Positions 10,456-60,108 of a stretch of 64,000 nucleotides of DNA are shown here, one piece after another. The stretch comes from a virus (taxonomy: Duplodnaviria > Heunggongvirae > Uroviricota > Caudoviricetes). The stretch is taken from IMG/VR virus record IMGVR_UViG_2908567220_000002, positions 33,901 through 97,900 of that record; one strand, given 5' to 3'. Position 1 is the stretch's first letter. Each line of letters begins with the position of its first letter. Both the position numbers and the translations under genes were made by a program. The notes below the pieces were generated by a model. That model was not told where the DNA came from. It saw nothing but the letters and a program-made list of their open reading frames with translations, and made no database searches.

Positions 10456-10504
10456 CGCCATAACTCATACTGCTATAGATATATGGGGACTAACCGGAGG
10501 AAAA

Positions 10505-10726: not shown

Positions 10727-10930
10727 TACAACATTCCAGTAACCCGAGTGGGGCACGGTAATATTGGCAGGGAATCGTTCATAGAAACCGCCGTAATAGG
10801 TAAAACGCCCGCCCCGCTTGAAAGCCTGGTAATTTGAATCATCCATTAATAAAACATTAATCTGGTGTGAACATTGAACCCTGACAAGGTCACCATCATT
10901 CATGTGTTCACGACTATGTATATGGGACAT
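10667..10930 (-). CDS. Small hypothetical protein (88 aa), convergent with and overlapping the preceding ORF by 60 nt
   Basis: AGGAG SD then ATG; MSHIHSREHMNDGDLVRVQCSHQINVLLMDDSNYQAFKRGGRFTYYGG... Confidence 0.5.
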   Translation of the reverse strand: MSHIHSREHMNDGDLVRVQCSHQINVLLMDDSNYQAFKRGGRFTYYGGFYERFPANITVPHSGYWNVVLALPPGHRANIRYSINVIR

Positions 10931-12002: not shown

Positions 12003-12048
12003 TTTTCTGGAATTTTCTTAATGCGACAAATTTATTAAGGAGATAATT

Positions 12049-12270
12049 ATGATTGCTCATCACTTCGGAACTGATGATATTCCTCGTCAGTGCGTGACTC
12101 CCGGTGATTATGTTATTCATAAAGGAAGAACATATATTGCTTCGGTAAACAATATAAAAAAACACCGGCTCTATATTCGTGATTTTTCCACACAACACTG
12201 TATTAATGAAACCATGATTAAAGTCTTCCTTGATCGTGATGGTTTACCTGTAAAGGCGGAGTCGTGGTGA
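12049..12270 (+). CDS. Hypothetical protein (73 aa)
   Basis: AAGGAG SD; AT-rich; between Rha and exonuclease genes. Confidence 0.4.
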
Positions 12271-12387
12271 GCTGTAATAAAATAACTACCCCAATACGAC
12301 ATTCAGTTTAATAAATACATCAGATTCGATTCTTATATGCCAGCAATGGCAGTGACTTGTTCACCCCTAAATCTGTAATGAGGTTTA

Positions 12388-14826
12388 TTGATGAGCACGA
12401 ATAAAGAAGTGTTTGCGCTATATTGCGAAGCTAAAAATGACAAGGTCAGAAAGCGTCTCGGTATTAAAGGTGGCTTTTTCTGGATCGAAGCCAAAAAACT
12501 TTCCGTTGCAGTTTCCCGCTGTATTGCCGCTATGGACGATGCTGGCTACGACGAAGATGATTTCAAAAAAACAGTTCGCGTCCATTTGCCTGTTCTAAAT
12601 GACCTGCCACCTGAAGGCGTATTTGATACTGATTTCTGTAACCGTTACGAAAAAGGTGGAGAAGATGGCATCACAATGATGCCGGTACCGTCCAGCAACA
12701 GCGATGAAAACAGTAACGCCGCTAATACTAACGTCAACGGCGAAGACATGATTGAGATTGAGGAGAATATTCTTCTGCCGGTTTCAGGTCAGCTTCTGCC
12801 TGTTAGATGGCTGGCACAGCACGGCAGCGAAAAACCTGTCACGCATGTTTCACGGGATGAACTGCGGGCATTACATAACGCACAGGAAGAAAAACTTCCC
12901 GCCGTTACCGCTCTGGCCATCTCAAATAAAGCAGTGCAACTCGAACCGCTGGAGATTCGGGATTTGTACAAACTGGTGCGGGACACTGACAAAGTTTTTC
13001 CCGCCCCCGTAAATTCAGACCTGGGACTGATGACTTCCTTCATCGAAGCATACCTGGACGCTGACTACACCAATCGCGATCTGCTTACAAAAGAGTGGAT
13101 GAAAGGAAATCATGTTTCGCGAATCAGCCGCACACCATCCGGCGCTAACGCTGGCGGCGGTATTCTTACCGATCGCGGCGAAGGTTTTGTACACGATGAT
13201 GCATCACTGGCGCGCGACGTAGCCACTGGCGTGCTGGCCCGTTCAATGGACGTGGACATTTATAACCTTCATCCGGCACACGCTAAACGCGTCGAGGAAA
13301 TTATCGCTGAAAATAAACCGCCCTTTTCTGTTTTCTTCAGCAAATTCATCACCATGCCGGGCCACAAGGATTTCTCCCGTGCCATCGTGGTTGCCTCCGT
13401 GAAAGAATCACCAGTTGGTATAGAGGCTATGCCCCACCGTGTCACCGAATACCTGAATAAAGTGCTGACTGAAACCGATCATGCCAACCCTGATCCGGAA
13501 ATCGTGGATATTGCCTGCGGTCGCTCCTCTGCCCCGATGCCGCAGCGTGTAACTGAAAAAGAAAAACATGATGAAGAAAAACCGCAACCATCTGGCGCAA
13601 TGGCAGATGAACAGGCAACGGCTGAAACAGTGGAACCGGATGCAACTGAACATCATCCGGACACGCAGCCGGTGGATGCTCAGCCACAGGTGAATTCTGT
13701 TGATGCGAAATATCAGAAACTGCGGGCAGAACTCCATGAAGCTAGGAAAAACATTTCGCCTAAAAATCCTGTCGACGCAAACAAATTACTGGCAGCCTCT
13801 CGCGGAGAATTTGTTGAAGGGATTAGTGACCCGAATGATCCGAAATGGGTTAAGGGGCTCCAGACTCGCGAGTCTTCGAACCAGAATCAACCAGAAGTGG
13901 AACAAACCAAGCCAGAATCGGGACAAAATAGCCAGGATGCACACCAAAATGAACCAAAAACGATACATCCGGAGCCAGCAGCGCAACATGCACAGAAAAA
14001 TCCCTGTAATGTTTGTGGGGAAACTGGCGGGGGCACATGCCCTGACTGTGCCTCAGTAATGGGTGACGCAACTTACCATGAGACATTCTGCGAGGAAGAT
14101 TCAGATGAATCTCAGGAAAAAGCTCCGGAGGAGATGGAAAACCCTGAACATCCGCATCCGGAAAATACTGACAGCAATCAGCATAACAATAGCGGTGATA
14201 AAACTGACAGGACGACAAATTCCTTAATTAATATGCACGGTCATCAGAAAAGAACATCCACCAGCAGAATGTGTCACCATCTGATGATCGACCTTGAAAC
14301 AATGGGAAAAAATCCTGATTCCCCGATTATCTCAATAGGTGCAATATTTTTCGATCCGCAAACCGGAGAGATGGGACCAGAATTTAATAAAACCATCGAT
14401 CTGGAAACTGCTGGCGGAGTCATTGATCGGGACGCGATCAAGTGGTGGCTGAAGCAATCACGCGAAGCGCAATCTGCCATTCTGACCGATGAAATCCCGT
14501 TAGATGATGCACTGCTGCAATTGCGGGAATTTATCGCCGAAAACTCCGGTGAATTGTTTGTTCAGGTCTGGGGAAATGGAGCCAACTTCGACAACGTGAT
14601 TTTGCGCCGTTCATATGAACGGCAGGGTATCCCCTGCCCGTGGCGCTACTACAACGATCGCGATGTACGCACAATCATTGAACTGGGAAAATCCATAGAC
14701 TTCGATGCCAGGACGCCTATTCAATTCGAAGGCATACGCCACAATGCGCTGGATGATGCCCGTCACCAGGCGAAATACGTTTCAGCAATCTGGCAAAAAC
14801 TGATCCCGAATCAGTCTGATTTTTAA
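12388..14826 (+). CDS. Large early-left protein with C-terminal DEDDh (DnaQ-like) 3-prime-5-prime exonuclease domain; exodeoxyribonuclease VIII-like position
   Basis: 812 aa; C-terminal [25 protein letters not shown] motifs; [15 protein letters not shown] zinc-ribbon-like motif; C-terminal ~190 aa identical to B's 60109..62580. Confidence 0.7.
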
Positions 14827-14889
14827 TGTTCAACCCCAGTCGTCGCCCCCAGCTATAGTGGCGGCGACCATGATTAGCGAACGATACTC

Positions 14890-15138
14890 ATGGCAAGACT
14901 TATTCTGCTCACTGAGTGGGCAAAAGAGGAATTCAGCGATCCGGTCCCTACTCCGGGCACGTTAAGTAAATACGCTAAAGCCGGAATGATATTTCCTCTC
15001 CCCAAAAAAGTTGGAAGACACTGGCGAGTGGATCCGCGAGCTCGCTTTGTCGGAATGGTAAACAAGCCGGAGGTGATCGCCACAGATCACCCTGCTTTAA
15101 AGAGGATACTGGAAGATGGCACGCCCGCGAAAATATAA
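14890..15138 (+). CDS. xis: Excisionase-like protein
   Basis: 82 aa immediately upstream of and overlapping int; identical copy at 62644..62892. Confidence 0.65.
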   Translation: MARLILLTEWAKEEFSDPVPTPGTLSKYAKAGMIFPLPKKVGRHWRVDPRARFVGMVNKPEVIATDHPALKRILEDGTPAKI

Positions 15139-16419: not shown

Positions 16420-17005
16420 AAAAAACACAATAACCAATTGTATTTGAAGCAAAAAAACAAGACTTTGAGATGTTTTTTTGTACCTTTTTTTATGCTTTTA
16501 ACTGTCTGATTTTATTGAAATCTTTTTTAGTTTTGCAGAAGGAATTTTTTACTTGATTGTAACTTTTTCGTTTTTTTGGGGCTAATTGACGCGCAATGCT
16601 GGGCGGGGAGCGCACAGCCAAAAAAACCGAAATTGACCGCTAATTACTGCCAATCATCATCGCTCTGATTGAGCGTAAATCATTCAGGTTATTCAGTTCT
16701 TCCTTCTGCTCTCGCTGACGTCAATAAATCCCATCATTGCGATCAACCTCATCCTTAACCATTGATGCGAGCAGTTCTTCCAGTTTCTGCGCTGACAGCT
16801 TTACCTGGTGATCTTCAGCATCTTCCCGGGCTATTGTGGTTCGCGCAGTGGCTGATTTTGCTGACATCACCACAGGGGGCAGACGGACCATTGAACCATG
16901 GCCTCCGGAACAAATAAGGGCAAAAATAACAACCACTATCGAAAGCTCACAAACTAACCGCAGCACGTTCCTGCATACGACGTGTCTGCGGCATAATCCC
17001 AATGA

Positions 17006-17275
17006 TTACTCCCTGACAGGATTTGCAGGCCACTCAATATCAGGTACAGTTGATGTATCAACACGATTCAACAATACCCGATATTTATTCCATGCCTCCA
17101 GCAACGATCTTTCTTCCTCCGTTGCGATTTCCAGATCTACAGCATCCTGCAGTGGCGCAATATACTCACTGAATTCCTGGATGTAGAACTGTGTGGTGAC
17201 GGTCTTCCAGCCATTCGGCTCCTGCTGTATCGAAGCATACCAGGCTATTTCAATATCGCTATGCTGCGGCAGCAT
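17006..17275 (-). CDS. Tail fiber assembly (Tfa)-like protein, truncated variant
   Basis: 89 aa; C-terminal ...[50 protein letters not shown] is a Tfa C-terminus; 3-prime part repeated at 18055-18195. Confidence 0.6.
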
Positions 17276-18000: not shown

Positions 18001-18054
18001 CATCCAACCGCAGCACGTTCTTGCTTAAGACGTGCTGCGGCATAATCCCAATGA

Positions 18055-18237
18055 TTACTCCCTGACAGGATTTGCAGGCCACTCAATATCAGGTGCAGTT
18101 GATGTATCAACACGGTTCAGCAACACCCGATACTTTTTCCAGGCTTCCAGCAATGAGGTTTCTTCCTCCGTTGCGATTTCCAGCTCAACAACAGTCTGAA
18201 CGTACCGGGAACAGCCTCCTTCAGAGCTTGAAGGATA
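18055..18237 (-). pseudogene. Tfa C-terminal remnant with no start codon, directly after the stf stop
   Basis: Encodes ...[43 protein letters not shown] in frame after stf TGA; no ATG. Confidence 0.55.
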
Positions 18238-47267: not shown

Positions 47268-48089
47268 CTATCGCGTTACCCTCTTTAACTGCCGCTCCGC
47301 CCATGCCTCTTCAATGTCAAACCGAACCACCAACGTATCGTAAAAGCGTTTCACTGATTTTTTCCACGTATCAAGCGTGATAGCACTCGTCACTTTGCGT
47401 ATGGCATTAAATGCCTCCGTTGATGGTAGTCTTTCACAGCCACGACCATCACAACGCTGGCAGTCTCTGATAACAGGCATACCACGTTTTACCGACTCTT
47501 CACGATGAATGGCGACACCACGCCCACGGCAATCCTTACAGGCGGTGGAAACCTCACCCTTTCCGCCACACTCCGGACAGGCAACTTTTACCACCTCCCT
47601 GACTTTTTTCCATTCTTCCCAGTAAGACGGATACACACCTTTCGTACACTTTGCCCATACCGGCGGCTTACCATCCGGATACTGGACCTTGTTTGTAAAA
47701 ACTATGCTTTCAATAAATTTTTCCCCATAGCAACAAGGGCACTGCTTTTTACTCGCTGCGCTGCGGGCATAATCCTCAAAAGCGTACGAAGCCATAATGC
47801 GCATCACTACCGGTTTTATTTCTGCCGGAAGTTTTCTCAACGCCGCCACACGATCGCACCGACTGAGTGCATAATCTGCCAGTAATTCTGTTGCCCGCGC
47901 CCTGTCATTCATACTGATGCCCATTTTCCCAAGGAACGCAGAAAACCCCATCTCAGCCCGATTCTGTGTCATGCCCTGCGCGGCCATCACATCAGTGATA
48001 CTCAGCGCATCTTTCGACGTTGAGGCCGATGCATCAGTCAGGCCGGGGGATTTTGGGGAGTAGTATTTCGGTAAATCTTCCAGTTTCAT
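47268..48089 (-). CDS. Q: Antiterminator Q (lambda Q family)
   Basis: 273 aa; ...SPKSPGLTD...TDVMAAQGM...; Cys-rich zinc-binding region; overlaps rusA by 4 nt. Confidence 0.85.
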   Translation of the reverse strand: MKLEDLPKYYSPKSPGLTDASASTSKDALSITDVMAAQGMTQNRAEMGFSAFLGKMGISMNDRARATELLADYALSRCDRVAALRKLPAEIKPVVMRIMASYAFEDYARSAASKKQCPCCYGEKFIESIVFTNKVQYPDGKPPVWAKCTKGVYPSYWEEWKKVREVVKVACPECGGKGEVSTACKDCRGRGVAIHREESVKRGMPVIRDCQRCDGRGCERLPSTEAFNAIRKVTSAITLDTWKKSVKRFYDTLVVRFDIEEAWAERQLKRVTR

Positions 48090-48460
48090 TTTTTGACCTG
48101 CTCTTCATGCATTATGGGGTAAATCTTCACCCCCAGACGTCCACCAGATACTGGCTGACCACGAACGATATTGATTTCATCAAACTGCTCATCGTCCATT
48201 AACACTCCCGCATGCGTCAGCGCATCCAGCGGTGCTTTCAGGATATTGTCCAGGTCGCGACGACGCTTATCCGGTGGCTCTGCAATCACCTTTATCGCCA
48301 GCCTTCCGGACAGGCTTAATTTCAGCCGCTGCTGGCGAACAATAAGCGCCACTGCCCGGCGATAACGCTCCCCGGCTTTTGATACAAAATATGTGCTGCC
48401 ACGGCGTCGCCAGTAAGTGTTCACCGTCGGCGGGTAAGGTAAAACCAAATCTATGAGCAT
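48086..48460 (-). CDS. rusA: Holliday junction resolvase RusA
   Basis: 124 aa; paralog of 517..867. Confidence 0.9.
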   Translation of the reverse strand: MLIDLVLPYPPTVNTYWRRRGSTYFVSKAGERYRRAVALIVRQQRLKLSLSGRLAIKVIAEPPDKRRRDLDNILKAPLDALTHAGVLMDDEQFDEINIVRGQPVSGGRLGVKIYPIMHEEQVKK

Positions 48461-48472
48461 CAGTCACCTCTT

Positions 48473-49519
48473 TTACCCAAGCACGCCAGTTGCAAAGGCG
48501 TGATCAAGAAAACGAAAAATTAAATCAACCTGAGAACCATGCTTTTCTTCGAACGCCAGAGGATCCGCATGAAGCTCGTTGTGATGCTCCCGACACAGCG
48601 GTAGCGTGAAAATATCGTGAGATTTTGTCCCCATTCCGCCCTGACCATGACCAATCAGGTGATGGGGATCGTCGGCTGGCTTACCACAACACGCACACGG
48701 CTGTGTCTTCACCCAGCGTGTGTATTTCTCGTTAACCCAGCGGCGACGTTTAGGTCGTTTCATGAAAGATTCCGGAGACTCAGGATCAACGGCAATGCTG
48801 ACCACCGTCTCTTCCTGTGGCGGGTTTTGCTGGTGGGCGTGAGGCAGCGGCGCAAGATTTTTTGTGCGCTGCTTCAGTATGCTGGTGGCGGTCTGCTCTC
48901 CCGGTACGATGTCGCTTTCACGGTACATTGAGCGGATTTTTTCCGCACGCAACCCCAGCGAACGACGTAATACCGCTTCCGGTAGCGCGTCCGCCACCTG
49001 ATTGCGGACCGCCCACCAGGATAATTCAGCCAGAGATAATTCACGCTCCTGCGTACCGCTTATTGCGTGACCGATGACGTCAATCATCCATGCTGACAGG
49101 TTTTGATGAGCAAGTTGCTCGAGTGATTCGGATGTCTGGTCACGCAGCTGGTTGTCGCAGTGCCAGCACAACACCATTGCGCCGGTACCATAACGGTGAA
49201 TAACGGTTTCGCTGTGATGATAATCGCCGTGTGGCCACTGGCAGGATTTAATATTGCGCAACAGCCAGTCAGACAATGCACCAGCACCACCAGCAGCACG
49301 AATTACCCGTGCGTTACTGAAAAACGGCAGCAATGTTTTGTCTTCCACCAGCGGCTGGCGAACGGCAGGAACGACCCCGGACGGCAGATTACGCATGCTT
49401 TTCGGTTCCGGCTCCACCAGTACCCGGGTATTGTGGAATACCGGCATGGATTCACGGCCCGGCTTAACGATCACCAGCCCGAGTTCCGGTACCAGAACAG
49501 GTCGAAGTAATACCCGCAC
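48473..49519 (-). CDS. DUF968-family protein (YdfU-like) with HNH-like motif
   Basis: 348 aa; paralog of 880..1929. Confidence 0.8.
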   Translation of the reverse strand: MRVLLRPVLVPELGLVIVKPGRESMPVFHNTRVLVEPEPKSMRNLPSGVVPAVRQPLVEDKTLLPFFSNARVIRAAGGAGALSDWLLRNIKSCQWPHGDYHHSETVIHRYGTGAMVLCWHCDNQLRDQTSESLEQLAHQNLSAWMIDVIGHAISGTQERELSLAELSWWAVRNQVADALPEAVLRRSLGLRAEKIRSMYRESDIVPGEQTATSILKQRTKNLAPLPHAHQQNPPQEETVVSIAVDPESPESFMKRPKRRRWVNEKYTRWVKTQPCACCGKPADDPHHLIGHGQGGMGTKSHDIFTLPLCREHHNELHADPLAFEEKHGSQVDLIFRFLDHAFATGVLG

Positions 49520-49520
49520 G

Positions 49521-49799
49521 TTACCTCCAGATGCGTTGCTGGAATGTGCGGGACGGACGCGGTGGGCGTTCGGAGTAAGGAAGCCTGACGGAGATTATCC
49601 AGTGACGATAATCGAGGCTGAGGGCTTTCTTAATCTCGTATCCGTGTCTGCGGTAGCACTGAATTAGCCACTCGGCCTGTTCTTCAGTGCATGGGGGATG
49701 CTGGAACCAGTCAGATTTGAAAGTGCGGGAACGCCGCCCGTGCCTGCTGGCAAAGACGGCAGAATCATCAGAATTGTGTAATTTGGTATCGTGCGCCAT
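49521..49799 (-). CDS. Hypothetical protein (rem position)
   Basis: 92 aa; paralog of 1931..2203. Confidence 0.55.
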   Translation of the reverse strand: MAHDTKLHNSDDSAVFASRHGRRSRTFKSDWFQHPPCTEEQAEWLIQCYRRHGYEIKKALSLDYRHWIISVRLPYSERPPRPSRTFQQRIWR

Positions 49800-49858
49800 C
49801 GGTTGTCTCTGCTGGCGCAGCAGGTGCCAGTTGTTCAGGCTGGCTCACGTATTATAAC

Positions 49859-50032
49859 TTATTCCCGAACTACCTTGAAACCGAGTCTTTCCAAGTATTC
49901 AATGAATGCCTCAACAGATAACACTACATGATCATCAGGAATTAACGCTGTGTAGGTAATACCCCCATTCTCAACGCGCACAGCATAGAGGCCATCTTCA
50001 CTAAAAATTTCACGTAATTCTTCGATTTTCAT
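49859..50032 (-). CDS. Small hypothetical protein (57 aa), part of inserted cassette
   Basis: Start MKIEELREIF with GGAAGGA SD; tracked ORF 49859..50080. Confidence 0.4.
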   Translation of the reverse strand: MKIEELREIFSEDGLYAVRVENGGITYTALIPDDHVVLSVEAFIEYLERLGFKVVRE

Positions 50033-50156
50033 CAACAGAATCCTTCCAGATAAATAGCACTCCCCCTGTTCGGGGTCCATCCCTCTTCTCCCTGCGCGCT
50101 ACTTAAGTATTTTTGATTCTATTCTGGCACCGTCCAAAACTTCAAACACGTTGAAA

Positions 50157-50184
50157 ATAAAAACAAAAAACCCGCCGAAGCGGG
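50157..50184 (-). terminator. Intrinsic terminator after the XRE-M78 gene (duplicate of the hok terminator sequence)
   Basis: CCCGC-CGAA-GCGGG hairpin then T-run on minus strand; same hairpin as at 52001-52021. Confidence 0.6.
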
Positions 50185-50189
50185 TATAC

Positions 50190-51296
50190 TCAAACAATCT
50201 GGAAAATATTTCTTGGATTTGTAATAGGTCTGTTGATGGAGAACAACTCACGAATTAAATCTTGGCTCAAGCCAGTTTTCATAAGAATTCTTAGCCAGGT
50301 TGCATCATCCAGCATTTCAATCGCCTCGGCCAGCATGCCGGGTTCTTCAGGGCGCAAAAGTTCATCACCAGGTTCAACTCTCGTATACCCTCTGGAATTA
50401 AGATGCATATAGCCAGTTCTTGCCTGTTCCTGGGTCAATAAGCCTAATGCGCTGGCTCGATAAATACACATTTTAAGGCTGATTTTCCATCTAAGTTTAA
50501 ATTCAACCAGAGCATTCCAGTCGAATTGCTTACCTCGTATTCGTGGAAATTCTTTAATGAAAGATAACCTGGGAACTAATAAGGCGCTCGAAAAGTGATC
50601 GGCTTGTGATTCCGTAAGTTTATCACCTGTCGTTATGCCCTCATGCATTACTAAATGCCCTAATTCATGACCTAAATCAGAGCGAAATCTACATATGCTT
50701 TTTTTAACATTGTTCCTGATGATAACAGGCCTGTTATTGTGAACAGTAAAAGCATCAACACGATCATCGACTCCCGTAACATGCGCAACGATTACCCCTA
50801 AACTCTCCGCCAATTTAACCATTGATGATATAGGGCCAAGACCTAAATTCCAGGCACGGCGACAATCTTCTGCCACTCGCTCAATATCATTCGGAGTAAG
50901 TAATTCAGCCCCTGGGTGCTCCGGTATGTTAACGTCAGGAAATTCGATTTCACCTTCAACAGCAGAAATTATAATATTAAGAATCTCAGCCCTGGCCAAT
51001 ACACTATTAGTCAGCGTTTGAGTCCTGGACTTCTTACTCCGAAAATGGCAGACATCACTTTCCAGAGCGTATTTTCGTTCAGTAAAAAGAAAACTGGACT
51101 TAATCATAAGCGCTGAAGATATTAACTCAAGACATTGCTCCGATGGCCTGCACCCCTTCTCCAGTTTGCTAACGAATTGCTTTGTCTTGCCAATTTTTTC
51201 GGCTAACTCTTCACAAGAAAGCCCAACAGCCATTCTCGCTAGTTTGAGCTTATCACCCCGATACTCAGTGAAGTTATTCACCTGATGTTCCATCAC
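50190..51296 (-). CDS. XRE-family HTH fused to ImmA/IrrE-type (M78) zinc metallopeptidase domain
   Basis: 368 aa; N-terminal HTH (KLKLARMAVGLSCEELAEKIGKTKQFVSKLE); HEXXH motif HELGHLVMHE. Confidence 0.8.
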   Translation of the reverse strand: MMEHQVNNFTEYRGDKLKLARMAVGLSCEELAEKIGKTKQFVSKLEKGCRPSEQCLELISSALMIKSSFLFTERKYALESDVCHFRSKKSRTQTLTNSVLARAEILNIIISAVEGEIEFPDVNIPEHPGAELLTPNDIERVAEDCRRAWNLGLGPISSMVKLAESLGVIVAHVTGVDDRVDAFTVHNNRPVIIRNNVKKSICRFRSDLGHELGHLVMHEGITTGDKLTESQADHFSSALLVPRLSFIKEFPRIRGKQFDWNALVEFKLRWKISLKMCIYRASALGLLTQEQARTGYMHLNSRGYTRVEPGDELLRPEEPGMLAEAIEMLDDATWLRILMKTGLSQDLIRELFSINRPITNPRNIFQIV

Positions 51297-51924
51297 TGCT
51301 CACATCCAAATCTTTATCCTTCGTACGCCGACGAAGAGGCACCTTATTAATCTCCGCTTCGTCAGGGAGTGTGTTATAATCAAGAGGCATAAGCGGCATC
51401 GATGCTGTAGATTGATGAGAAACTATACTAATCTGAGCACCATAAGTATTAAATCCAACAAGAGCTACCTCCCAACGAGGCAGTGTGGACTCTAATTCAC
51501 CATCGCCCTCTTCGGATAAAAAAGGCTCAGCTATGACTCGCCATGTAATATCTTGCTCAGCCTCAACATCACCAAACAATGAGAGCTGCTCATACTCTAC
51601 TTTATTTCGACGCAGACGATGTTTCTTTTTGGGGTTATTAATGCAATCTTTGGTAAATTGTAGCGGAACTTTATTTAAAGCAACTACATAGTCCAACCCC
51701 TTGGAAATCATCTCAAGGCCAGGAATTGCATCTTCATTTTGAATAAGATGATTTCTGACCCAATCATAAGCCCTTACACCTTCAGACCAGTTGCTGTCTA
51801 ATGCGTGCTTATGATAGTACAGCTGCTCAAGTACGTTAGCGATCTCCGCCAACAAGTGGCGAACATAGTTTTCAGCAAGATAAGGTTGAAATTCCCAACA
51901 AGGAGCTAACTGATTTTCATTCAT
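51274..51924 (-). CDS. Hypothetical 216-aa protein, upstream partner of the XRE-M78 gene (23-nt overlap)
   Basis: MNENQLAPCWEFQPYLAENYVRHLL...; no recognisable motif; candidate TTGACA promoter upstream at ~51983-51988. Confidence 0.55.
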   Translation of the reverse strand: MNENQLAPCWEFQPYLAENYVRHLLAEIANVLEQLYYHKHALDSNWSEGVRAYDWVRNHLIQNEDAIPGLEMISKGLDYVVALNKVPLQFTKDCINNPKKKHRLRRNKVEYEQLSLFGDVEAEQDITWRVIAEPFLSEEGDGELESTLPRWEVALVGFNTYGAQISIVSHQSTASMPLMPLDYNTLPDEAEINKVPLRRRTKDKDLDVSSDGTSGE

Positions 51925-52000
51925 TTCAAGTTTCGCTTTTTTTAGAATTCGTAAACCACATATTTTCGCATTTTTCTATTTTTGTCAACCAGACTAATGC

Positions 52001-52021
52001 AAAAACCCGCCGAAGCGGGTT
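52001..52021 (-). terminator. Intrinsic terminator downstream of hok (prophage B copy)
   Basis: CCCGC-CGAA-GCGGG hairpin with T-run on minus strand. Confidence 0.55.
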
Positions 52022-52089
52022 AAGTGCGGGTGCGTTGAGGATGCCTGGCACATCAGAGGTGGCGGGAGATTACTCCCCCGCCGGGTCTC

Positions 52090-52245
52090 TTACTCCTCAG
52101 GTTCGTAAGCTGTGAAGACAGCGACCTCCGTCTGCCCGGTTCGGATTCGTACCTCGCAGAGGTCTTTCCTCGTTACCAGTGCCGTCACTATGACGGTTAA
52201 ACAGATGACGATCAGGGCGATTAGCATCGCCTTTTGCTGCTTCAT
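52090..52245 (-). CDS. hok: Hok/Gef family type I toxin
   Basis: 51 aa MKQQKAMLIALIVICLTVIVTALVTRKDLCEVRIRTGQTEVAVFTAYEPEE. Confidence 0.9.
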   Translation of the reverse strand: MKQQKAMLIALIVICLTVIVTALVTRKDLCEVRIRTGQTEVAVFTAYEPEE

Positions 52246-52456
52246 AGCCTGCTTCTCCTTGCCTTTCGGCACGTAAGAGGCTAACCTACGTGTGTAGAGC
52301 ATAGATATGGCCTCAGATTAATGTTAAGCGTCTTGCCGGACGCGTAATGTTAACTGGGGCTTTTCTCTATCTGCCTTTTGGTGTTCATGCCTGAGACAGA
52401 TAGCCTCAAGCACCCGCTGCAATTCTACTTAACTCTCCTTTTCCCGCAAACCGTTT

Positions 52457-52540
52457 TTATCCCCAGCGGCAAATCGAATACACCACCAGCGCCACCGCCA
52501 TCGCAATTCCTACCGTTGTTAATGCTTCAGGCCAGGTCAT
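52457..52540 (-). CDS. 27-aa hydrophobic peptide, translationally coupled (ATGA overlap) to the upstream gene; speculative
   Basis: Hand-translated [27 protein letters not shown]; absent from prophage A, whose cargo island begins exactly here. Confidence 0.25.
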
Positions 52541-52881
52541 CGTAAAATATCCTCCACGCTTATCAGTCCGTTCCGCTCCAGATAACTCATCGCCTTATCC
52601 GGTAATTTGCAGTCTGGCTTCGCTTTCCTCAGTTGCCAGGTTAACTGCTTTACCAGCATGGTTAACTCATCGACCAGACGCTGATATCCCACTGGTTTGT
52701 ATTCATGCAATTTACCGGCTGGCTCTGCTGCCAGCGATACCAGTGCGATTTCCAGAACAGCAATATCCATCTTATATGTGCGGATGATGTCATGGTCGAT
52801 TGTGCCCGGTATGCACAGTCTCTGTGCTTCAATAGTCTCCTCTGCGTGAGCTATTAACTGCTCTCTGGTAAAAGTCGTCAT
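52537..52881 (-). CDS. Hypothetical nin-region protein (114 aa)
   Basis: [22 protein letters not shown]...; paralogous N-terminus to the 55-aa ORF just upstream. Confidence 0.5.
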
Positions 52882-53045
52882 GCCGTAGCCCCTTCTTGAT
52901 ATTTTTCAAACCAGAACACAACCGGCTCTGCTTCCAGTGATGCCAGCGCAATCCGTGCCAGTTCCATTTGTTCACCACGGGTAAGCCCGTTTTCAAGCGG
53001 GTTTTTAATGAACAATTCAATACGTTCTTTGGTAATAGTGGTCAT
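52878..53045 (-). CDS. Small hypothetical protein (55 aa), paralog of the N-terminal part of the downstream gene
   Basis: Hand-translated [59 protein letters not shown] overlap with next gene. Confidence 0.4.
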
Positions 53046-53055
53046 GTGTTACTCC

Positions 53056-53319
53056 TTAACCCGCAGTGCTTTCAACTGATGAGGGGAACAAAATCTTTTC
53101 ATCAAACCCTGCATTCATATCATGAACAGCAACACACCAATCCATCGACGAACGATTATCAAGAGCCTCCATGATTTCATCCATGCGGCGTAGGTCATAC
53201 AGGTAAATGCTTTTATCGCCAATGGTGTAAAAGCCAATTTTTTTCGGTGATGGACAGCGATCAAGAACTTCCTGTAATTCGTTCAACCATGCCCGTTCTT
53301 TTTTTGTCAAAGTTGCCAT
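53056..53319 (-). CDS. Hypothetical nin-region protein
   Basis: Likely start MATLTKKERAWLNELQEVLDRC; tracked ORF 53056..53409. Confidence 0.45.
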   Translation of the reverse strand: MATLTKKERAWLNELQEVLDRCPSPKKIGFYTIGDKSIYLYDLRRMDEIMEALDNRSSMDWCVAVHDMNAGFDEKILFPSSVESTAG

Positions 53320-53320
53320 A

Positions 53321-53539
53321 TCAGTTTTCCTTATACGGATTAATTTTATTGTGCAGTGTGTTGAACGACGCCCATACAACGTCGGTATACAATTCAGTAA
53401 CTGGCTCAATTATTTTCCCGATTGCCCAGACAAAAATTAGAGGGGATATCGGTATCATCAATACGATAAACAGAATGAGAAACAAAAATTCTGTCGCTCT
53501 ACTTTTTTGCGGATATTCTTTTCTGAATAATGTAGTCAT
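53321..53539 (-). CDS. Small membrane protein (one predicted TM segment)
   Basis: 72 aa with hydrophobic FLFLILFIVLMIPISPLIFVWAIG. Confidence 0.45.
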   Translation of the reverse strand: MTTLFRKEYPQKSRATEFLFLILFIVLMIPISPLIFVWAIGKIIEPVTELYTDVVWASFNTLHNKINPYKEN

Positions 53540-53571
53540 TTCTTACCGCCCTTTCGGGCGGCCTCCCGACA

Positions 53572-53784
53572 TTAATCGTTGTGGTAACTCATGGCTTCAT
53601 TTGCAGCATCAACCGGATCAACTTCCCACCAGCAATAATTTGGTGCGTTTCCTTCAGGTGTCCACGGTTCTAATTCATTTTTTGCCACATTCTCGTCGCC
53701 AGTAATTTTAAAAATCTGTTCAGAGAATTTTTTCACCCACTCGTTATATTTTTCAGTGTTAATAATTTTCTGTGTATTTGACAT
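53572..53784 (-). CDS. Hypothetical protein (70 aa)
   Basis: ORF track only; MSNTQKIINTEKYNEWVKKF... Confidence 0.4.
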   Translation of the reverse strand: MSNTQKIINTEKYNEWVKKFSEQIFKITGDENVAKNELEPWTPEGNAPNYCWWEVDPVDAANEAMSYHND

Positions 53785-53895
53785 AGATATACCTCCAGTT
53801 AAGGATTAAATTTTATTTACAGTGCTGAACTTAATTATTCAGATTTGGATTATGCTTTCTCTTTCTCTTCACGAAGTTCCGATTGTTAATTTGGC

Positions 53896-54318
53896 TCACA
53901 ACAGCACCTTCTGAAAATTCCCCTGATAGAAAGCCAGTACACGCTGCATAGCTTCACTCTTCCGGCACTCGAGACAGATTATGTTCAGACGCCTGTCGTA
54001 GCGGCGTATTTCGCCATCTGGTAATGACCAGATAAGGTCCGGATCAACCGCAGATGGTTTCTTCAGCTTTGCCCTTGAGAGTATTTTGCGTGCATTTTGC
54101 CAGTCTTTACGAGCCTGTTCAGACGGGAATAACCCGTAACCAGAGTTGTATACATCACCACTGGCAACCAGCTCTCTGGCCAGAAGGCTCATCAGATATC
54201 TTGTTGCCCCAGTTTTAGTTTCCAGTTGTCGTAACGTCTCGCGCCCACTCTGGCGTACGAGTTCAACAACCTGCCCTTTAATTTTTTCCCGCTCTTCTTG
54301 TGTAAATACTTTTGCCAT
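53896..54318 (-). CDS. Hypothetical protein conserved downstream of replication genes
   Basis: Start MAKVFTQEEREKIKGQ; paralog of 6485..6907. Confidence 0.6.
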   Translation of the reverse strand: MAKVFTQEEREKIKGQVVELVRQSGRETLRQLETKTGATRYLMSLLARELVASGDVYNSGYGLFPSEQARKDWQNARKILSRAKLKKPSAVDPDLIWSLPDGEIRRYDRRLNIICLECRKSEAMQRVLAFYQGNFQKVLL

Positions 54319-54333
54319 AAGCGCCTCCGGCAA

Positions 54334-55104
54334 TCACTTTTCCGATACAACACGGCGGGAAGAATCAGTAATCTGTCGAACAATATCCCGGTGCTTGTTC
54401 AGCTCCCGCAGCGCGGCGCAGACTCGCTCCCACTTCTGAACATCACTTTTCGCCCTGCGCAGCGCCAGGTTTGCCCTGCGAAGGGACGGAAAAATCAGCT
54501 CATCTGCTTGCGTTTCGGTAAACGATGGCAACGGCTGCACAATGTCCGCCACAGTTTCTGTTTTAATTTCTTCCTGTGTTGCGGCTTCCCGGACTGGTAA
54601 CGCAGCACCTGCTGGCTGAGGAAAGGCCTTACCATCACTTTCCGTTACCAGCGCGGCTTTCGGCTCTGCTGGTAAATTATCGCCCGGCATGCAGTAACGA
54701 AATTTACCGTTCTGATTAACGCGTGCCAGCCGCCCCGTTGCGGTTACCACCGCCAGCGTGGAAGCAACCTTGCGAGTACTGACACCGAACTTACCCGCCA
54801 GTTCCTCACACGTTTTAGCCCCATCCTGACCGATAAACTCAATCATCATGTCTGCGGTAACTTTTTGTTCGACCTCCCCGGTCAGCATATCCTGTGCTTC
54901 AGATTTTACTGGCCGCTCTTCGGTTACCCGGGATTCACCTTCGCCAGCCAGAAACCAGGTGTGACCAGTTTTATCAACGACGCCTTTTCTTTTGAGTTCC
55001 CACAGCTCGTTGACAGCCTCTTCACGACTGATTCCAAGGCGAGCTGCCACCACATGTGAAGAGGCTTTTTTCAGTGCTTTCAGTGCGTCAGATACGGTTT
55101 CCAT
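54334..55104 (-). CDS. Hypothetical protein with N-terminal HTH-like region (replication-associated position)
   Basis: 256 aa METVSDALKALKKASSHVVAARLGISREEA...; no counterpart in prophage A. Confidence 0.5.
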   Translation of the reverse strand: METVSDALKALKKASSHVVAARLGISREEAVNELWELKRKGVVDKTGHTWFLAGEGESRVTEERPVKSEAQDMLTGEVEQKVTADMMIEFIGQDGAKTCEELAGKFGVSTRKVASTLAVVTATGRLARVNQNGKFRYCMPGDNLPAEPKAALVTESDGKAFPQPAGAALPVREAATQEEIKTETVADIVQPLPSFTETQADELIFPSLRRANLALRRAKSDVQKWERVCAALRELNKHRDIVRQITDSSRRVVSEK

Positions 55105-55125
55105 TAAAATTTCCTCCGGACAAAA

Positions 55126-55872
55126 TTACTTCACAACCCTCATATTGCTGACATTTGGACGCCAGCTATCCCAGTTAAACGTCACCCATCGACCACCGTT
55201 CATGGTCATGCGGTCCATAATCCTCTCACCAAGAAGCGTACTCATTGCGGCATGATTCAGGTTTGTTAACATCCCGACACTGCACAGTGATGCTGTCCGG
55301 CGATCAATTATCTGGTGCAATACCACCTGCTCGTTTTTCGTCTCCCGCTGAACGCCTATTTCATCCAGGACCAGCAAATCAACCCCGCAAAGCTCCTGTA
55401 AAAATTTTTCCCCGGATTTGCCGTTGTCGTAGCTGTCATGCAACACGCTCATGACGTCAGACACGGTGACGATAATCACGCTGCGCCCCTTCACCATCAG
55501 CCGGTTGCCCATCGCCGCTGCAAGGTGATTTTTCCCGGTGCCGGTTTTACCGCTGAACACAAAATTCGTGCACCCGGTCATCAGTTCGTCAGCTATGGAT
55601 TTGGCCTGGCTCAGCGCGTATTTTTGCCCGTCGTTCTGCACCTGATAATTTGCAAACGAGCATTTGCTGTGCAGAGGCTGGATGCCCGAACGATTCAGGA
55701 TTTTTTCCACCCGCAACTGGCGATTCTGGCGGTTAATCTCCTCGCTGCGTTTTCGTCCTTCAGCAAGTTGCCATTCCCGCCACTCCTCCACCGTCCGGTA
55801 CGGTGGAACCGACCCCTGTGGTGCAAGTCTGCGAATACGTTCAAGAACCCCAACTGCCGCAATGTTTTTCAT
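55126..55872 (-). CDS. DnaC-like helicase loader (IstB-like AAA+ ATPase)
   Basis: 248 aa; Walker A GKTGTGKNHLAAA, Walker B DLLVLDEIG; directly after replication initiator. Confidence 0.85.
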   Translation of the reverse strand: MKNIAAVGVLERIRRLAPQGSVPPYRTVEEWREWQLAEGRKRSEEINRQNRQLRVEKILNRSGIQPLHSKCSFANYQVQNDGQKYALSQAKSIADELMTGCTNFVFSGKTGTGKNHLAAAMGNRLMVKGRSVIIVTVSDVMSVLHDSYDNGKSGEKFLQELCGVDLLVLDEIGVQRETKNEQVVLHQIIDRRTASLCSVGMLTNLNHAAMSTLLGERIMDRMTMNGGRWVTFNWDSWRPNVSNMRVVK

Positions 55873-55878
55873 GACACG

Positions 55879-56856
55879 TCACCCCCTGAATCCCGGCGGT
55901 ATTTCAGTGTCCGGTTCAGAAATGTGATTCACGCAACGCTGCGCAGGCGAACGCCCCAGGCGGATAACCAGTTCATCCCATTTTTCCCGGAGTTTTGCCG
56001 GACTCATGATGTTTTTTACCCAGAACGAATCCCGCTGGAGACGCCCAAACATTTCACAAATTTGTCTGTGAGTTCTGCCATCCAGCATCCGCATTGTGCG
56101 AACGTCATTGGCCCATGCTGTCCAGTTGGGTTCTTTCGGTCTAGTGATCTCGCCATCATAGCTGGCCGCCTGCTCGTAAAGACTCACGATTCGTCCCCAG
56201 ATCCACTGTGCGCACACCAAATCTTCCTGACTTCCCCACTGGCGTTTTTTCGCACTGAACACAACCGCGTCAGGGTGTCGGGTTAAAAAATCCTGTTCAG
56301 CCGTCTGCGGGTCCGGTTGCGAAGCGTCCGGACAAGAAGATCTTTTATCTGACGGATCAGGTTTTAATACTGACGGATCGGGGTCAATCATCGCCCCCCT
56401 AATCGGCAGTTTTTTATCAACAGTTGATCCATCAAAATTTGACGGGTCAACCGTTGAGGGGTCAATATTTGACGGGTCAACTGTTAACGGGTCATTTTTT
56501 GCCGGGCTAATTTTTCTTTTCGGTTTATATGACTCACGCGCCGCCGCCGCAGCTGCTTCGAGTTTTTCCACATTAAGCCGATAGATATTGCTTACATTAC
56601 GCCCACCGACCTTACGCTCTTCCTTCGTCAGCCAGCCCTCTTTCGCCAGTTCTGCAATAGCCGATTTCACTGTGGATTCACTTCTTGCACCGATCTGACG
56701 CCGGATAGTTTCAATGGCAGGCCATGACACGCCCTCGTCATTGCTGTAGTCTGCAAGACGGGCCATAACCGCCACCCTGGATAAGATCATGCCGGTGAAG
56801 GCGCACCCTTCCCAGACAAGACCATGAAGCTTGCTGCTCATAAAACCCCCGAACAC
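55879..56856 (-). CDS. Replication initiator (O-like, HTH) with internal origin iterons
   Basis: 325 aa; iterons encode DPSNIDPSTVDPSNFDGSTVD; C-terminal 20 aa shared with A's replication protein. Confidence 0.7.
   Translation of the reverse strand: MFGGFMSSKLHGLVWEGCAFTGMILSRVAVMARLADYSNDEGVSWPAIETIRRQIGARSESTVKSAIAELAKEGWLTKEERKVGGRNVSNIYRLNVEKLEAAAAAARESYKPKRKISPAKNDPLTVDPSNIDPSTVDPSNFDGSTVDKKLPIRGAMIDPDPSVLKPDPSDKRSSCPDASQPDPQTAEQDFLTRHPDAVVFSAKKRQWGSQEDLVCAQWIWGRIVSLYEQAASYDGEITRPKEPNWTAWANDVRTMRMLDGRTHRQICEMFGRLQRDSFWVKNIMSPAKLREKWDELVIRLGRSPAQRCVNHISEPDTEIPPGFRG
56350..56500. repeat. Putative replication origin iterons inside the O-like gene
   Basis: Repeated GACGGGTCAA / GGGGTCAA / GACGGATC units. 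Confidence 0.6.
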
Positions 56857-56863
56857 CGTGCTT

Positions 56864-57289
56864 TTAGTGCATCACCACAGCATTCCCTGCCGGGCCGCCG
56901 CGATTCATCTGGTCATACAAAACAACCGCTGACGCAACAAAATCATCGACATCCTTCACCAGCCGATCCCTCCGTTCGACGATCTCACGGTAATATTCAG
57001 AACTGTGGCTGCGCATACGGGCCACCAGCAAAGGCGGCATCGCCTTTTCGATCGCCGGTAACAGAGCCTGCATTTTTTCAACAGCATCAGGGGTGTCTTT
57101 CTCTACCCAGCGGAAAATTTTCTGGGTATTGCGAGCCAGGGCTTCCGGATGGCTGTCGTCATACAGTTCTGGGAACGTCATACCCAACTCAAAATAAGCC
57201 TGGGTTATTCCAGCTGCTGGAACTTTTTCGCCATCAGGACGCGCCCAGGCATTCATCGCCATGCGGATGTGTTCATGCTTGATTTTCAT
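56864..57289 (-). CDS. YdaT-like protein (CII position)
   Basis: 141 aa MKIKHEHIRMAMNAWARPDGEK...; paralog of 8090..8515. Confidence 0.65.
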   Translation of the reverse strand: MKIKHEHIRMAMNAWARPDGEKVPAAGITQAYFELGMTFPELYDDSHPEALARNTQKIFRWVEKDTPDAVEKMQALLPAIEKAMPPLLVARMRSHSSEYYREIVERRDRLVKDVDDFVASAVVLYDQMNRGGPAGNAVVMH

Positions 57290-57554
57290 GAATCAAGCTC
57301 CTAGAAAGTGGTTGTGTTAACGTTTTGGTATCTTCCAGCTCGGGCCAAATATTCATCCAATCAAAAGGCCTTAGTTGCTGACGTGTAACTTCACCATTAC
57401 TGGCTCGCTCAATAAGGACACATAACGATGCCCCTAACACTTGACCTTTACTCAATGCCTTTCTTAGATAACCGATGCTGGTACCACACTCGCATGCAAA
57501 CATACGCTGTTCATCTGACGAAAGAGAATTGAGAAATATTCTTAATTCTTCCAT
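57273..57554 (-). CDS. YdaS/Cro-like HTH regulator
   Basis: 93 aa; ...GEVTRQQLRPFDW... resembles YdaS-type Cro; divergent from repressor gene. Confidence 0.6.
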   Translation of the reverse strand: MEELRIFLNSLSSDEQRMFACECGTSIGYLRKALSKGQVLGASLCVLIERASNGEVTRQQLRPFDWMNIWPELEDTKTLTQPLSRSLIHENQA

Positions 57555-57654
57555 AGCTACTCCTTAGTAAACACAGCAAAGAATACCCACAGGTAAACAA
57601 AAGTCAATACCCACAGGTTGTTTACCTTGCGGTAATCGCATCTATTATTTACCT
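57555..57654. promoter_or_regulatory. Divergent promoter/operator region (OR-like)
   Basis: Two direct AATACCCACAGGT repeats; related palindrome TACCCATGGGTA occurs twice at ~58110-58160. Confidence 0.5.
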
Positions 57655-58074
57655 ATGGACAAATATGAATTTAGACGACAGCAACTCATCAAAATTCGTG
57701 ATGAGAAATGCGATGGTAAAGCGGTTAACGTGGCCAGAAAGATCGGGCGCGAGCCTTCTTATGTATCAAGAATGTTGTACCCAGAGGGGAAAAAGGGAAA
57801 AAAACGGATCGCTGATGATATGGTGGAGATTATCGAAGAGTCCTTTGGGTTACCCCGGGGATGGATGGATGGTATCGTTTCATCATCAACGAACACAGCC
57901 TCCAGTTATGAAACAAGGGTTCTAACGCCACGACAACGTATTTTTTTAGATCTCTTAGACGAACTGCCAGAAAGTGAAGCGGATAAATTATTAAAAACTC
58001 TTGAAGAGAAAAAACAGTATTACAATATGATCTACGAAGAAATCCGTAAAAAGAAAGCACAAAACGCATCATAG
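57655..58074 (+). CDS. Prophage repressor (RacR/DicA-like HTH, no S24 peptidase domain)
   Basis: 139 aa; N-terminal region differs from A's repressor, C-terminal ~50 aa nearly identical. Confidence 0.7.
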   Translation: MDKYEFRRQQLIKIRDEKCDGKAVNVARKIGREPSYVSRMLYPEGKKGKKRIADDMVEIIEESFGLPRGWMDGIVSSSTNTASSYETRVLTPRQRIFLDLLDELPESEADKLLKTLEEKKQYYNMIYEEIRKKKAQNAS

Positions 58075-58339
58075 CTCACCAAACAACTAGTCACCAGTTA
58101 AGACACCGCAAAAATTTACCCATGGGTATTTACTTTTTAAATACCTATGGGTATCCTTCTTTTCATACCAACCCACCCCGCCCCACAGAATGCAGGGCAA
58201 TACTTCGAGTTACCAGGCAGTGGTCAGGGGTTAAGTAGCCAGCCCGAGGCGTAAGAACATGACGGCAGGGTTCAACTTTAATAACTATGCAGCAGGTTTT
58301 TGTTCCGCTACCCCGGCGTTAAGGGGAAATGAGGTCAGC

Positions 58340-58492
58340 ATGGATACTATCGATCTTGGCAACAGCGAATCTCTGGTATGTGGCGTGTTCCCCAACCAGG
58401 ACGGTACGTTCACCGCGATGACGTATACCAGAAGCAAAACGTTTAAAACTGAAGCTGGCGCGCGTCGCTGGTTAACCAGAAACACTGACTGA
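58340..58492 (+). CDS. ydfA: YdfA-like protein
   Basis: 50 aa MDTIDLGNSESLVCGVFPNQDGTFTAMTYTRSKTFKTEAGARRWLTRNTD. Confidence 0.75.
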   Translation: MDTIDLGNSESLVCGVFPNQDGTFTAMTYTRSKTFKTEAGARRWLTRNTD

Positions 58493-58503
58493 TGAGGTTG
58501 ACG

Positions 58504-58824
58504 ATGGAATTTAAAGATTTACCAGTACCATTCCAGGAAATGGCATCGAATGTGGTTCGCTCTCAACTGGCGACTCTTGACCTGAGTACCGTAGAAAAAG
58601 AAACCATCGACAATATATCCGGTAACGTACGCCGAGCCTTTATCGGGCTGTACGAAGAGAAGCAGCTCTCTGATAACCAGGATTTACATGAAAAATACTT
58701 CCTGGATCTAATGGACATCATTGATAAGGGGTTTGGCTTGTTAATGAAAAAGAAAGGGATTCGAATAGAACCCCTTGAAAATTACTTTGCAACAAAAAGC
58801 ATTAATTCTTTTGATTCAAAATAA
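58504..58824 (+). CDS. Hypothetical protein (106 aa)
   Basis: Start MEFKDLPVPFQEMASNVV with GAGG SD; replaces the YdfB-like gene of prophage A. Confidence 0.45.
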   Translation: MEFKDLPVPFQEMASNVVRSQLATLDLSTVEKETIDNISGNVRRAFIGLYEEKQLSDNQDLHEKYFLDLMDIIDKGFGLLMKKKGIRIEPLENYFATKSINSFDSK

Positions 58825-59077
58825 GAGAATTAATTACAGACTTAACATGCTCTTTCTCATGATTGAAGCTCTCATGATTGAAAGTGCCGGGTTGAAGCGA
58901 GTCGATATAATCAACAAGACTCTGTCGTACGACTTCATTTTTATCCATAACAGATGCAAGAAATGAAATTGCTAAAAGAGTTATATCACTACGCGCCGCA
59001 GCATGTTGCAATGCTTTATCAAAATTATTAATCTGGCGTATCAGGGAGTTAATGATTTCATCATTTTCAGTCGACAT
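58802..59077 (-). CDS. Hypothetical protein (91 aa) antisense to the early-left operon, convergent with the preceding gene
   Basis: Start MSTENDEIINSLIRQINNFD with AGGAGGG SD; tracked ORF 58802..59290. Confidence 0.45.
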   Translation of the reverse strand: MSTENDEIINSLIRQINNFDKALQHAAARSDITLLAISFLASVMDKNEVVRQSLVDYIDSLQPGTFNHESFNHEKEHVKSVINSLILNQKN

Positions 59078-59411
59078 TTCACCCTCCTGAGGGTTGGTGA
59101 TTAAGGAGTTCTCCACGGGTGAGGTGGAGTGCGTGCGCCGGACACGGGTGAGCATCCGGCACTGACAGTTTACTGAAAGGATATTTCCCTGAAAAGTCAG
59201 ACCATAACGCGAAAGCGCACGGCGAGGTAGCTGGTTCATAGATAGCCTGTCGTTAAATTTTCGTCGACCGTGCGCTTCCGGTTGTGGCAATCCGCGAAAT
59301 GGCGCGGCGGTAAGTATGGCGGGGTTATTCCTTCCCCCGTTGAGGACACCGGGTTGTCAGGTTGACCATACGCTTAAGTGACAACCCCGCTGCAACGCCC
59401 TCTGTTATCAA

Positions 59412-59468
59412 TTTTCTGGTGACGTTTGGCGGTATCAGTTTTACTCCGTGACTGCTCTGCCGCCCTTT
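59412..59468 (+). ncRNA. dicF: DicF small RNA
   Basis: TTTCTGGTGACGTTTGGCGGTATCAGTTTTACTCCGTGACTGCTCTGCCGCCCTTTTT matches DicF as recalled, including terminator hairpin and U-tail. Confidence 0.8.
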
Positions 59469-59639
59469 TTAAAGTGAATTTTGTAATGTGGTGAATGCGG
59501 CTGAGCGCACGCGGAACAGTTAAAACCAAAAACAGTGTTATGGGTGGATTCTCTGTATCCGGCGTTAATTGTTAACTGGTTAACGTCACCTGGAGGCACC
59601 AGGCACCGCATCACAAAATTCATTGTTGAGGACGCGATA

Positions 59640-59828
59640 ATGGAAACGTTATTACCAAACGTTAATACGTCTGAAGGTTGTTTTGAAATTGGTGTCAATA
59701 TCAGTAACCCTGTATTTACTGAAGATGCCATTAACAAGAGAAAACACGAACGGGAGCTATTAAATAAAATATGCATTCTTTCAATGCTGGCCCGTTTACG
59801 TCCGATACAAAAAGGATGCTGGCAATGA
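59640..59828 (+). CDS. dicB: Cell division inhibitor DicB
   Basis: 62 aa METLLPNVNTSEGCFEIGVNISNPVFTEDAINKRKHERELLNKICILSMLARLRPIQKGCWQ. Confidence 0.85.
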   Translation: METLLPNVNTSEGCFEIGVNISNPVFTEDAINKRKHERELLNKICILSMLARLRPIQKGCWQ

Positions 59829-60016
59829 ATACAGCATTTGCACTTGTTCTGACAGTTTTTCTTGTTTCCGGAGAGCCAGTTGATATTGCAGTCAGTGTTC
59901 ACAGGACAATGCAGGAGTGTGTGACTGCAGCAACCGAACAGAAAATTCCCGGTAACTGTTACCCGGTCGATAAAGTTATTCACCAGGATAATAACGAAAT
60001 CCCGGCAGGTCTTTAA
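59825..60016 (+). CDS. ydfD: YdfD-like protein
   Basis: 63 aa MNTAFALVLTVFLVSGEPVDIAVSVHRTMQECVTAATEQKIPGNCYPVDKVIHQDNNEIPAGL; overlaps dicB stop. Confidence 0.8.
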   Translation: MNTAFALVLTVFLVSGEPVDIAVSVHRTMQECVTAATEQKIPGNCYPVDKVIHQDNNEIPAGL

Positions 60017-60108
60017 AACAGTTCCGTAATAAATATCCGGTTTCATTCTTATATGCCAGCAATGGCAGGGATTTGTTCACCCTTAAATCTGTAATGAGGT
60101 AAAACAAA

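Follow-up and report, generated by a model that had tools for sequence, protein, structure and literature searches.

The locus lies on the minus strand of prophage B, one of two prophages compared within the window, the term used here for the whole 64,000-nucleotide stretch of viral DNA that was analysed. In transcription order it consists of hokD, a terminator hairpin, an open reading frame (ORF) of 216 amino acids, an ORF of 368 amino acids, a second hairpin, and two small ORFs, one of 57 aa (or 73 aa in a longer reading) and one of 92 aa (Table 1). A BLASTN alignment of prophage A with prophage B ends at A2246/B49842 and picks up again at A2283/B52002, so that 2159 bp of prophage B (49843-52001) stand in place of 36 bp at the equivalent place in prophage A, in agreement with the insertion of about 2.15 kb described in the first-pass annotation of this DNA. 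The two larger ORFs, named rmrT and rmrA for the models they match, overlap on the same strand with rmrT upstream, by the 23 nt originally given when the GTG start of rmrA is used and by 20 nt from the ATG start chosen by RefSeq.

Table 1 Features of the hok-adjacent locus, in window coordinates
Feature	Position	Strand	Details
92-aa hypothetical ORF (context)	49521..49799	-	phrog_1212; RefSeq hypothetical, distinct from Rem
57-aa rem-family ORF, short allele (backbone, not cassette)	49859..50032	-	phrog_340; Rem similarity
Distal repeat copy AAAAACCCGCCGAAGCGGGT, terminator after rmrA	50166..50185	-	repeat and terminator scans
rmrA, predicted XRE-HTH + M78 (ImmA/IrrE-type) zinc-peptidase antitoxin	50190..51296	-	368 aa; RefSeq start is ATG 51293
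HELGH zinc-binding motif, RmrA residues 210-214	50655..50669	-	read from translation
rmrT, predicted toxin, Vmi480 family	51274..51924	-	216 aa; PADLOC RmrT; phrog_5786
Imperfect palindrome TTTACGAATTCTAAAA	51940..51955		between -10 and start codon; mostly kept in L004/L005
Candidate sigma-70 promoter of cassette	51960..51988	-	-35 TTGACA 51988-51983; weak -10 AAATAT 51965-51960; read from sequence
Hok-proximal terminator hairpin	52004..52021	-	within repeat copy 52001-52020; same context in prophage A and L002/L003
hokD, type I toxin gene (context, upstream of cassette)	52090..52245	-	Pfam HOK_GEF 2.9e-23; RefSeq hokD

Both proteins match the profile models of the respective Rosmer components, a comparison that had been proposed as a check at first pass, and the gene pair is intact. 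The 368-aa protein carries the Pfam domains HTH_3 (residues 17-63, 5e-7) and Peptidase_M78 (residues 177-282, 6e-11) together with a HELGH motif, as expected from its initial description as an XRE-HTH protein with a HEXXH site. Its match to the PADLOC RmrA model PDLC03943 extends over residues 12-351 (6.2e-105), 13 more RmrA models match it as well, and in PHROGs it falls to phrog_2439. Further matches were found to the PADLOC models capP (1.6e-14) and capH (1.5e-4) and to the NCBIfam model spr1629 at 1.5e-45, which is below the curated cut-off for that family, and comparison with the sequences of solved structures returned generic HTH regulators only.

The 216-aa protein matches the PADLOC RmrT model PDLC03929 at 4.6e-25 over model positions 5-195 of 198, and phrog_5786 at 8e-85. 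It had been characterized as lacking any recognisable domain, which is correct for Pfam, where neither this protein nor any of the 60 aligned family members has a match, and no NCBIfam family was found for it either, but the RmrT and PHROGs matches do place it in a known group. When 1.8 billion representatives were scanned in full with HMMER, the family came to a modest 69 clusters of mostly ~200-aa proteins, and every aligned member (60/60) matches PDLC03929. An AF2 model of RmrT has a pLDDT of 87; a Foldseek search of the PDB gave no significant match, and no match was found between the RmrT profile and the sequences of solved structures. The sole hint toward the target of RmrT is a putative degenerate restriction-endonuclease-like fold.

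The association of the two genes is conserved among distant relatives. In all five classifiable relatives of RmrT, which come from Xenorhabdus, Vibrio and metagenome contigs and range from 53% down to ~21% identity, a gene for an HTH and M78 peptidase protein follows directly, the genes overlapping or nearly so; a sixth relative, P0060, was left out as its contigs stop inside the overlapping downstream gene. Pairs of the RmrT/RmrA type were also found outside prophages. The closest functional precedent is the pair Vmi480/Vmi470 of the Vibrio mimicus element MGIVmi1, in which the 198-aa toxin Vmi480 is lethal in E. coli when alone, co-expression of the 362-aa HTH and Zn-peptidase antitoxin Vmi470 gives rescue, and deletion of the antitoxin by itself is not possible (Luo et al. 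2015, PMC4671572). A V. thalassae locus, located with the published primer sequences, stood in for the V. mimicus record itself; its gene lengths and 5-bp spacer are as published for Vmi480/470, and the primers match both ends of both genes. RmrA and the Vmi470-type antitoxin of this locus are 47% identical in a full-length alignment of 358 aa (E 3e-124). RmrT and the Vmi480-type toxin share 26% identity across 176 aa (E 7e-15), and hhalign pairs them at a probability of 97.7% over 178 columns. Both toxins match PDLC03929, and in both systems a toxin gene of ~200 codons comes first, followed by the gene of an HTH and Zn-peptidase antitoxin of ~365 aa. The Vibrio genes differ in being separated by a 5-bp gap instead of overlapping, and in residing on a mobilisable genomic island rather than in a lambdoid prophage.

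A second precedent is borne by an E. coli prophage, as is the cassette. The toxin-antitoxin (TA) system of strain E101, whose proteins are 33% and 42% identical to Vmi480 and Vmi470, renders clpP essential (Rousset et al. 2021), and since it is related to Vmi480/470 it belongs by transitivity to the same family as the cassette, although its proteins (WP_001179380/WP_000481765) are not those encoded here (WP_001004956/WP_000401168). By homology with these systems, RmrT would be lethal alone and RmrA would neutralise it, and the finding that the E101 system is silent only in the presence of ClpP may carry over to the cassette. The Rosmer-class system RipAB of S. pneumoniae (Spr1630/Spr1629), which depends on ClpX, has an antitoxin of the same broad family; it differs in having a toxin, RipA, whose target is the DnaN sliding clamp, and in being chromosomal and competence-linked.

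For phage defence itself, the reference is RosmerTA (RmrT/RmrA) of E. coli OLC-716, which was validated as a defence system by Millman et al. 2022. It shares the architecture of the cassette, toxin gene first, and the two RmrA proteins have 29% identity (E 2e-35). Detectable sequence homology between the two RmrT proteins was considered and ruled out, as hhalign of the cassette RmrT family against the OLC-716 toxin finds none (probability 0.3), in keeping with the diversity already known among RmrT proteins. The toxins of the Rosmer systems tested for defence, those of OLC-716 and phage Kita, are unrelated to the RmrT described here.

Two natural variants bear on the TA assignment. In one, IS5 has inserted in rmrT and rmrA is intact, which is the direction of decay expected for a TA pair. 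In the other, from strain CFSAN004176, rmrA has a frameshift just before the HEXXH motif and rmrT is intact. This second variant is at odds with a TA pair, except where the frameshift stems from an error in sequencing a homopolymer, the toxin allele is inactive, or neutralisation can do without the peptidase half.

Taken together, these matches uphold the original proposal of a Rosmer-type toxin paired with an HTH/M78-peptidase antitoxin, and our main reading, to which we assign a probability of roughly 85%, is that the element constitutes a self-contained TA moron of two genes, belonging to the Rosmer class and the Vmi480/Vmi470 family and located just 3' of the hok terminator in a lambdoid nin region. 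It is nevertheless conceivable, though unlikely, that the pair acts purely in addiction or stabilisation, keeping the prophage or the cargo of its hotspot in place without any anti-phage role. The literature found for this toxin family deals with toxicity, neutralisation and ClpP dependence only, the cassette adjoins the addiction-type toxin gene hokD, and its site is filled by a Doc-family TA system in another strain, all of which would suit such a role. RmrA-type systems with other toxins, on the other hand, do protect against phages, superinfection defence is a common task of prophage morons that have a promoter and a terminator to themselves, and the two roles are compatible with each other.

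The moron interpretation also draws on the distribution and borders of the cassette. Of 5426 complete E. coli genomes, 237 (about 4%) carry the identical cassette, in 224 records at an identity of at least 99%. One of them is ABU 83972, where the cassette belongs to a lambdoid prophage and is found in its nin region, with the replication genes on one side and Q on the other. No copy was recovered when deposited phage genomes were searched at the DNA and the protein level, and a literature search for the two cassette accessions returned nothing. A 94%-identical cassette (L005) resides in a rem-less backbone, again flanked by two copies of the hairpin, and an 80%-identical cassette in strain KL53 (L004) occupies a different nin location, retains the TTGACA and has a separate hairpin of similar stem. 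Because copies occur at this other nin location and in the rem-less backbone, the cassette behaves as a moron composed of promoter, genes and terminator, and it moves as a block between prophage sites.

Its extent can be delimited from two RefSeq-annotated E. coli prophage loci (L002 and L003) with the order hokD, rem, 92-aa hypothetical, DUF968. These are colinear with window positions 49400-50185, hairpin included, and their alignment restarts at window position 52000. As the rem-bearing prophages are colinear on both sides, the hairpins enclose a two-gene unit only, and relative to the rem-bearing E. coli prophage backbone the mobile unit is ~50186-52000, comprising the TTGACA promoter, rmrT, rmrA and one extra copy of the hok-terminator hairpin. 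The duplicated terminator hairpin reported at first pass was recovered: the 14-mer CCCGCCGAAGCGGG has three matches in the window (2287 in prophage A; 50171 and 52006 in prophage B) against 0.02 expected, both prophage B copies score as intrinsic-terminator-like on the minus strand, and both fall within a direct repeat of 20 nt, AAAAACCCGCCGAAGCGGGT, whose copies at 50166-50185 and 52001-52020 are identical. The native context of the hok terminator is divided between the two, with its upstream side at the hok-proximal copy and its U-tract and downstream side at the distal copy, and the U-tract of the hok-proximal hairpin is shortened by the insertion.

Lambdoid nin regions are highly mosaic, and the 2.16-kb difference could in principle be ordinary mosaicism with a coincidental likeness between hairpins, particularly as the KL53 hairpin has a different loop and no upstream copy. 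We regard this as improbable, given an exact 20-nt repeat where 0.02 matches would be expected, the recurrence of the same hairpin pair around the cassette in both rem-bearing and rem-less backbones, and the division of the native terminator context across the two copies. A hairpin pair, one member of which is degenerate, moreover encloses different cargo at the same site, namely a Doc-family toxin gene with a small ORF. Elsewhere the site holds a lipoprotein gene beside a remnant of the rmrA 3' end, rem alone, or no cargo; the hok-adjacent site is a swap hotspot whose cargo differs by strain.

The candidate promoter assigned at first pass to the cassette was recovered. Its TTGACA hexamer is in place and is kept in both the KL53 copy and the rem-less copy, whereas the -10 element is weak, the choices being AAATAT at a spacing of 17 nt or TGcGAAAAT at 15 nt, and a consensus promoter scan of the region did not report the candidate. 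An operator search gave one weak palindrome (Table 1) and nothing further, and this palindrome may be a candidate operator for the HTH domain of RmrA. An HTH domain and an M78-type HEXXH peptidase are also the hallmarks of ImmR/ImmA of ICEBs1 and CapH/CapP of CBASS, and an alternative reading would make the locus such a switch, with the HTH-peptidase sensing damage and regulating prophage genes, and the 216-aa protein acting as a regulated effector or anti-repressor rather than toxin. HTH repressors are cleaved by ImmA-type peptidases, and RmrA does match the capP and capH models noted above. In ImmR/ImmA and CapH/CapP, the two activities are found on separate proteins that control transcription of the element or of the defence operon, whereas in RmrA they are fused in one protein partnered with a toxin. 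The locus is also situated in the nin region and not in the immunity region, its own promoter and terminator insulate it, the homologous partner Vmi480 is lethal alone, and the pair exists outside prophages as well. An ImmR/ImmA-type prophage switch was therefore considered and rejected as very unlikely.

Contrary to the earlier grouping of three genes as a single cassette between the hairpins, the 57-aa ORF belongs to the backbone of rem-bearing prophages. It is a rem-family allele in which 20 of the first 25 residues match Rem, and the 73-aa reading (49859-50080) matches phrog_340 over residues 11-72, nearly the entire 57-aa form. The ORF is preceded by a Shine-Dalgarno sequence, GGAAGGA, and by a promoter-like site (50145-50116), and RefSeq labels a fragment at this position as a pseudogene. 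The name rem-like had been given instead to the 92-aa ORF, which is a separate hypothetical protein (Table 1). A precedent for a three-gene arrangement is PD-lambda-2, in which a HigB-like first gene and a toxic peptidase protein are accompanied by a required third gene (Vassallo et al. 2022); it resembles the cassette in having an Xre-HTH and peptidase fusion beside a toxin-like gene on an E. coli mobile element, and differs in that the cassette lacks both HigB and a third component, a PADLOC scan giving no match to a PD-lambda-2 or HigB model in the cassette. A three-component system with the 57-aa gene as required partner, for which this precedent and the initial grouping speak, was rejected as exceedingly improbable, given the terminator between rmrA and the 57-aa ORF, the occurrence of the rem-family allele without Rosmer in many prophages and of Rosmer without the ORF in the rem-less and KL53 copies, Xenorhabdus and Vibrio, and the lack of any PADLOC model match to the ORF.

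Under the Rosmer-class TA reading, the HTH domain of RmrA would repress the operon, possibly at the palindrome at 51940-51955, and cytoplasmic RmrT would be held inactive by RmrA, either through binding or through turnover assisted by the peptidase and ClpXP. Infection by a competing phage would upset this control and free RmrT, the infection would be aborted, and the lysogen population would thereby be protected. A more specific conjecture, which we consider doubtful, is that RmrT of the Vmi480 type is a toxin with a degenerate restriction-endonuclease fold that is checked by RmrA via peptidase/ClpXP-dependent turnover and, as a separate matter, that the hok terminator hairpin is a recurrent recombination "docking site" at which insulated cargo for TA or defence functions (Rosmer, Doc-type TA, lipoprotein gene) is exchanged among lambdoid prophages, with a duplicated hairpin left behind per swap.

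As a system the cassette is ordinary, Rosmer being already catalogued and called by standard defence models and a homologous TA pair having been validated in 2015. What the assignment provides is an identity for two proteins that RefSeq names "hypothetical" and "helix-turn-helix domain-containing" in 237 E. coli genomes, and which can now be read as a Rosmer-class TA system of the Vmi480/Vmi470 family. It likewise unites Vmi480, known as a Vibrio counter-selection toxin, with the ClpP-dependent TA system of an E. coli prophage and the Rosmer defence systems in a single family, and the variable hok-adjacent site is a handy natural case in which cargo is exchanged at a terminator.

In E. coli lambdoid prophages, the stretch that separates the hok terminator from a 92-aa ORF is a hotspot for cargo genes. 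In its cargo-free state this interval spans 36 bp, and in other states it holds rem alone, or the Rosmer cassette (the predicted toxin gene rmrT and the HTH/M78 peptidase antitoxin gene rmrA) with or without rem. Further cargo at this site included a Doc-family toxin accompanied by a small ORF, as well as a 130-aa lipoprotein gene adjoining a remnant of the rmrA 3' end. Copies of the same hairpin, that of the hok terminator, flank several of these cargos.

Coordinates of the features discussed (window positions unless an accession is given)
Feature	Coordinates	Remarks
Early/nin regions	1-15000; 48000-62000	two lambdoid prophages
Direct repeat, family D8	16986-17149; 18035-18198	164 nt, 90% identity, copies 1049 nt apart
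92-aa ORF	49521-49799	phrog_1212; unnamed
Cargo interval	49843-52001	also in prophage loci L002, L003, L005, L016, L017, L018
57-aa ORF	49859-50032	rem family
rmrA frameshift locus, CFSAN004176 (L005)	NZ_CP014583.1, 4005-5107	rmrT intact
rmrT::IS5 locus, FDAARGOS_1249 (L022)	NZ_CP069459.1, 1589-3148	rmrA intact

The 92-aa ORF, which is conserved beside DUF968 in these lambdoid prophages, is readily confused with rem, and the first-pass annotation had labelled it rem-like. At the position of the 57-aa ORF, the RefSeq annotation consists only of a 75-nt pseudogene fragment; the ORF is intact, has a Shine-Dalgarno sequence and matches phrog_340 over nearly its full length, with a Rem-like N-terminus and a shorter C-terminus that differs from that of Rem.

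The two early/nin regions share nine common blocks (families D1-D7 and D9) with 75-94% identity and offsets of ~47.4-49.7 kb. The stretch between them (~15-39 kb) aligns with tail and head genes of phages in other E. coli genomes at up to 96.6%, and no complete genome in the collection searched matched it at 99% over most of its length. The direct repeat of family D8 also lies in this stretch. ARAGORN found no tRNA genes in the whole window, whereas the ABU 83972 prophage, which has an identical cassette, carries three downstream of Q, and the late regions of the two therefore differ.

Natural variants of both cassette genes were also observed. Strain CFSAN004176 carries an rmrA frameshift close to residue 200, in an A run just before the HEXXH motif. 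A frameshifted antitoxin gene beside an intact toxin gene is unexpected, and may reflect a sequencing error or an HTH half that is sufficient for neutralisation. In strain FDAARGOS_1249, rmrT is interrupted by an IS5 element, a natural inactivation of the toxin.
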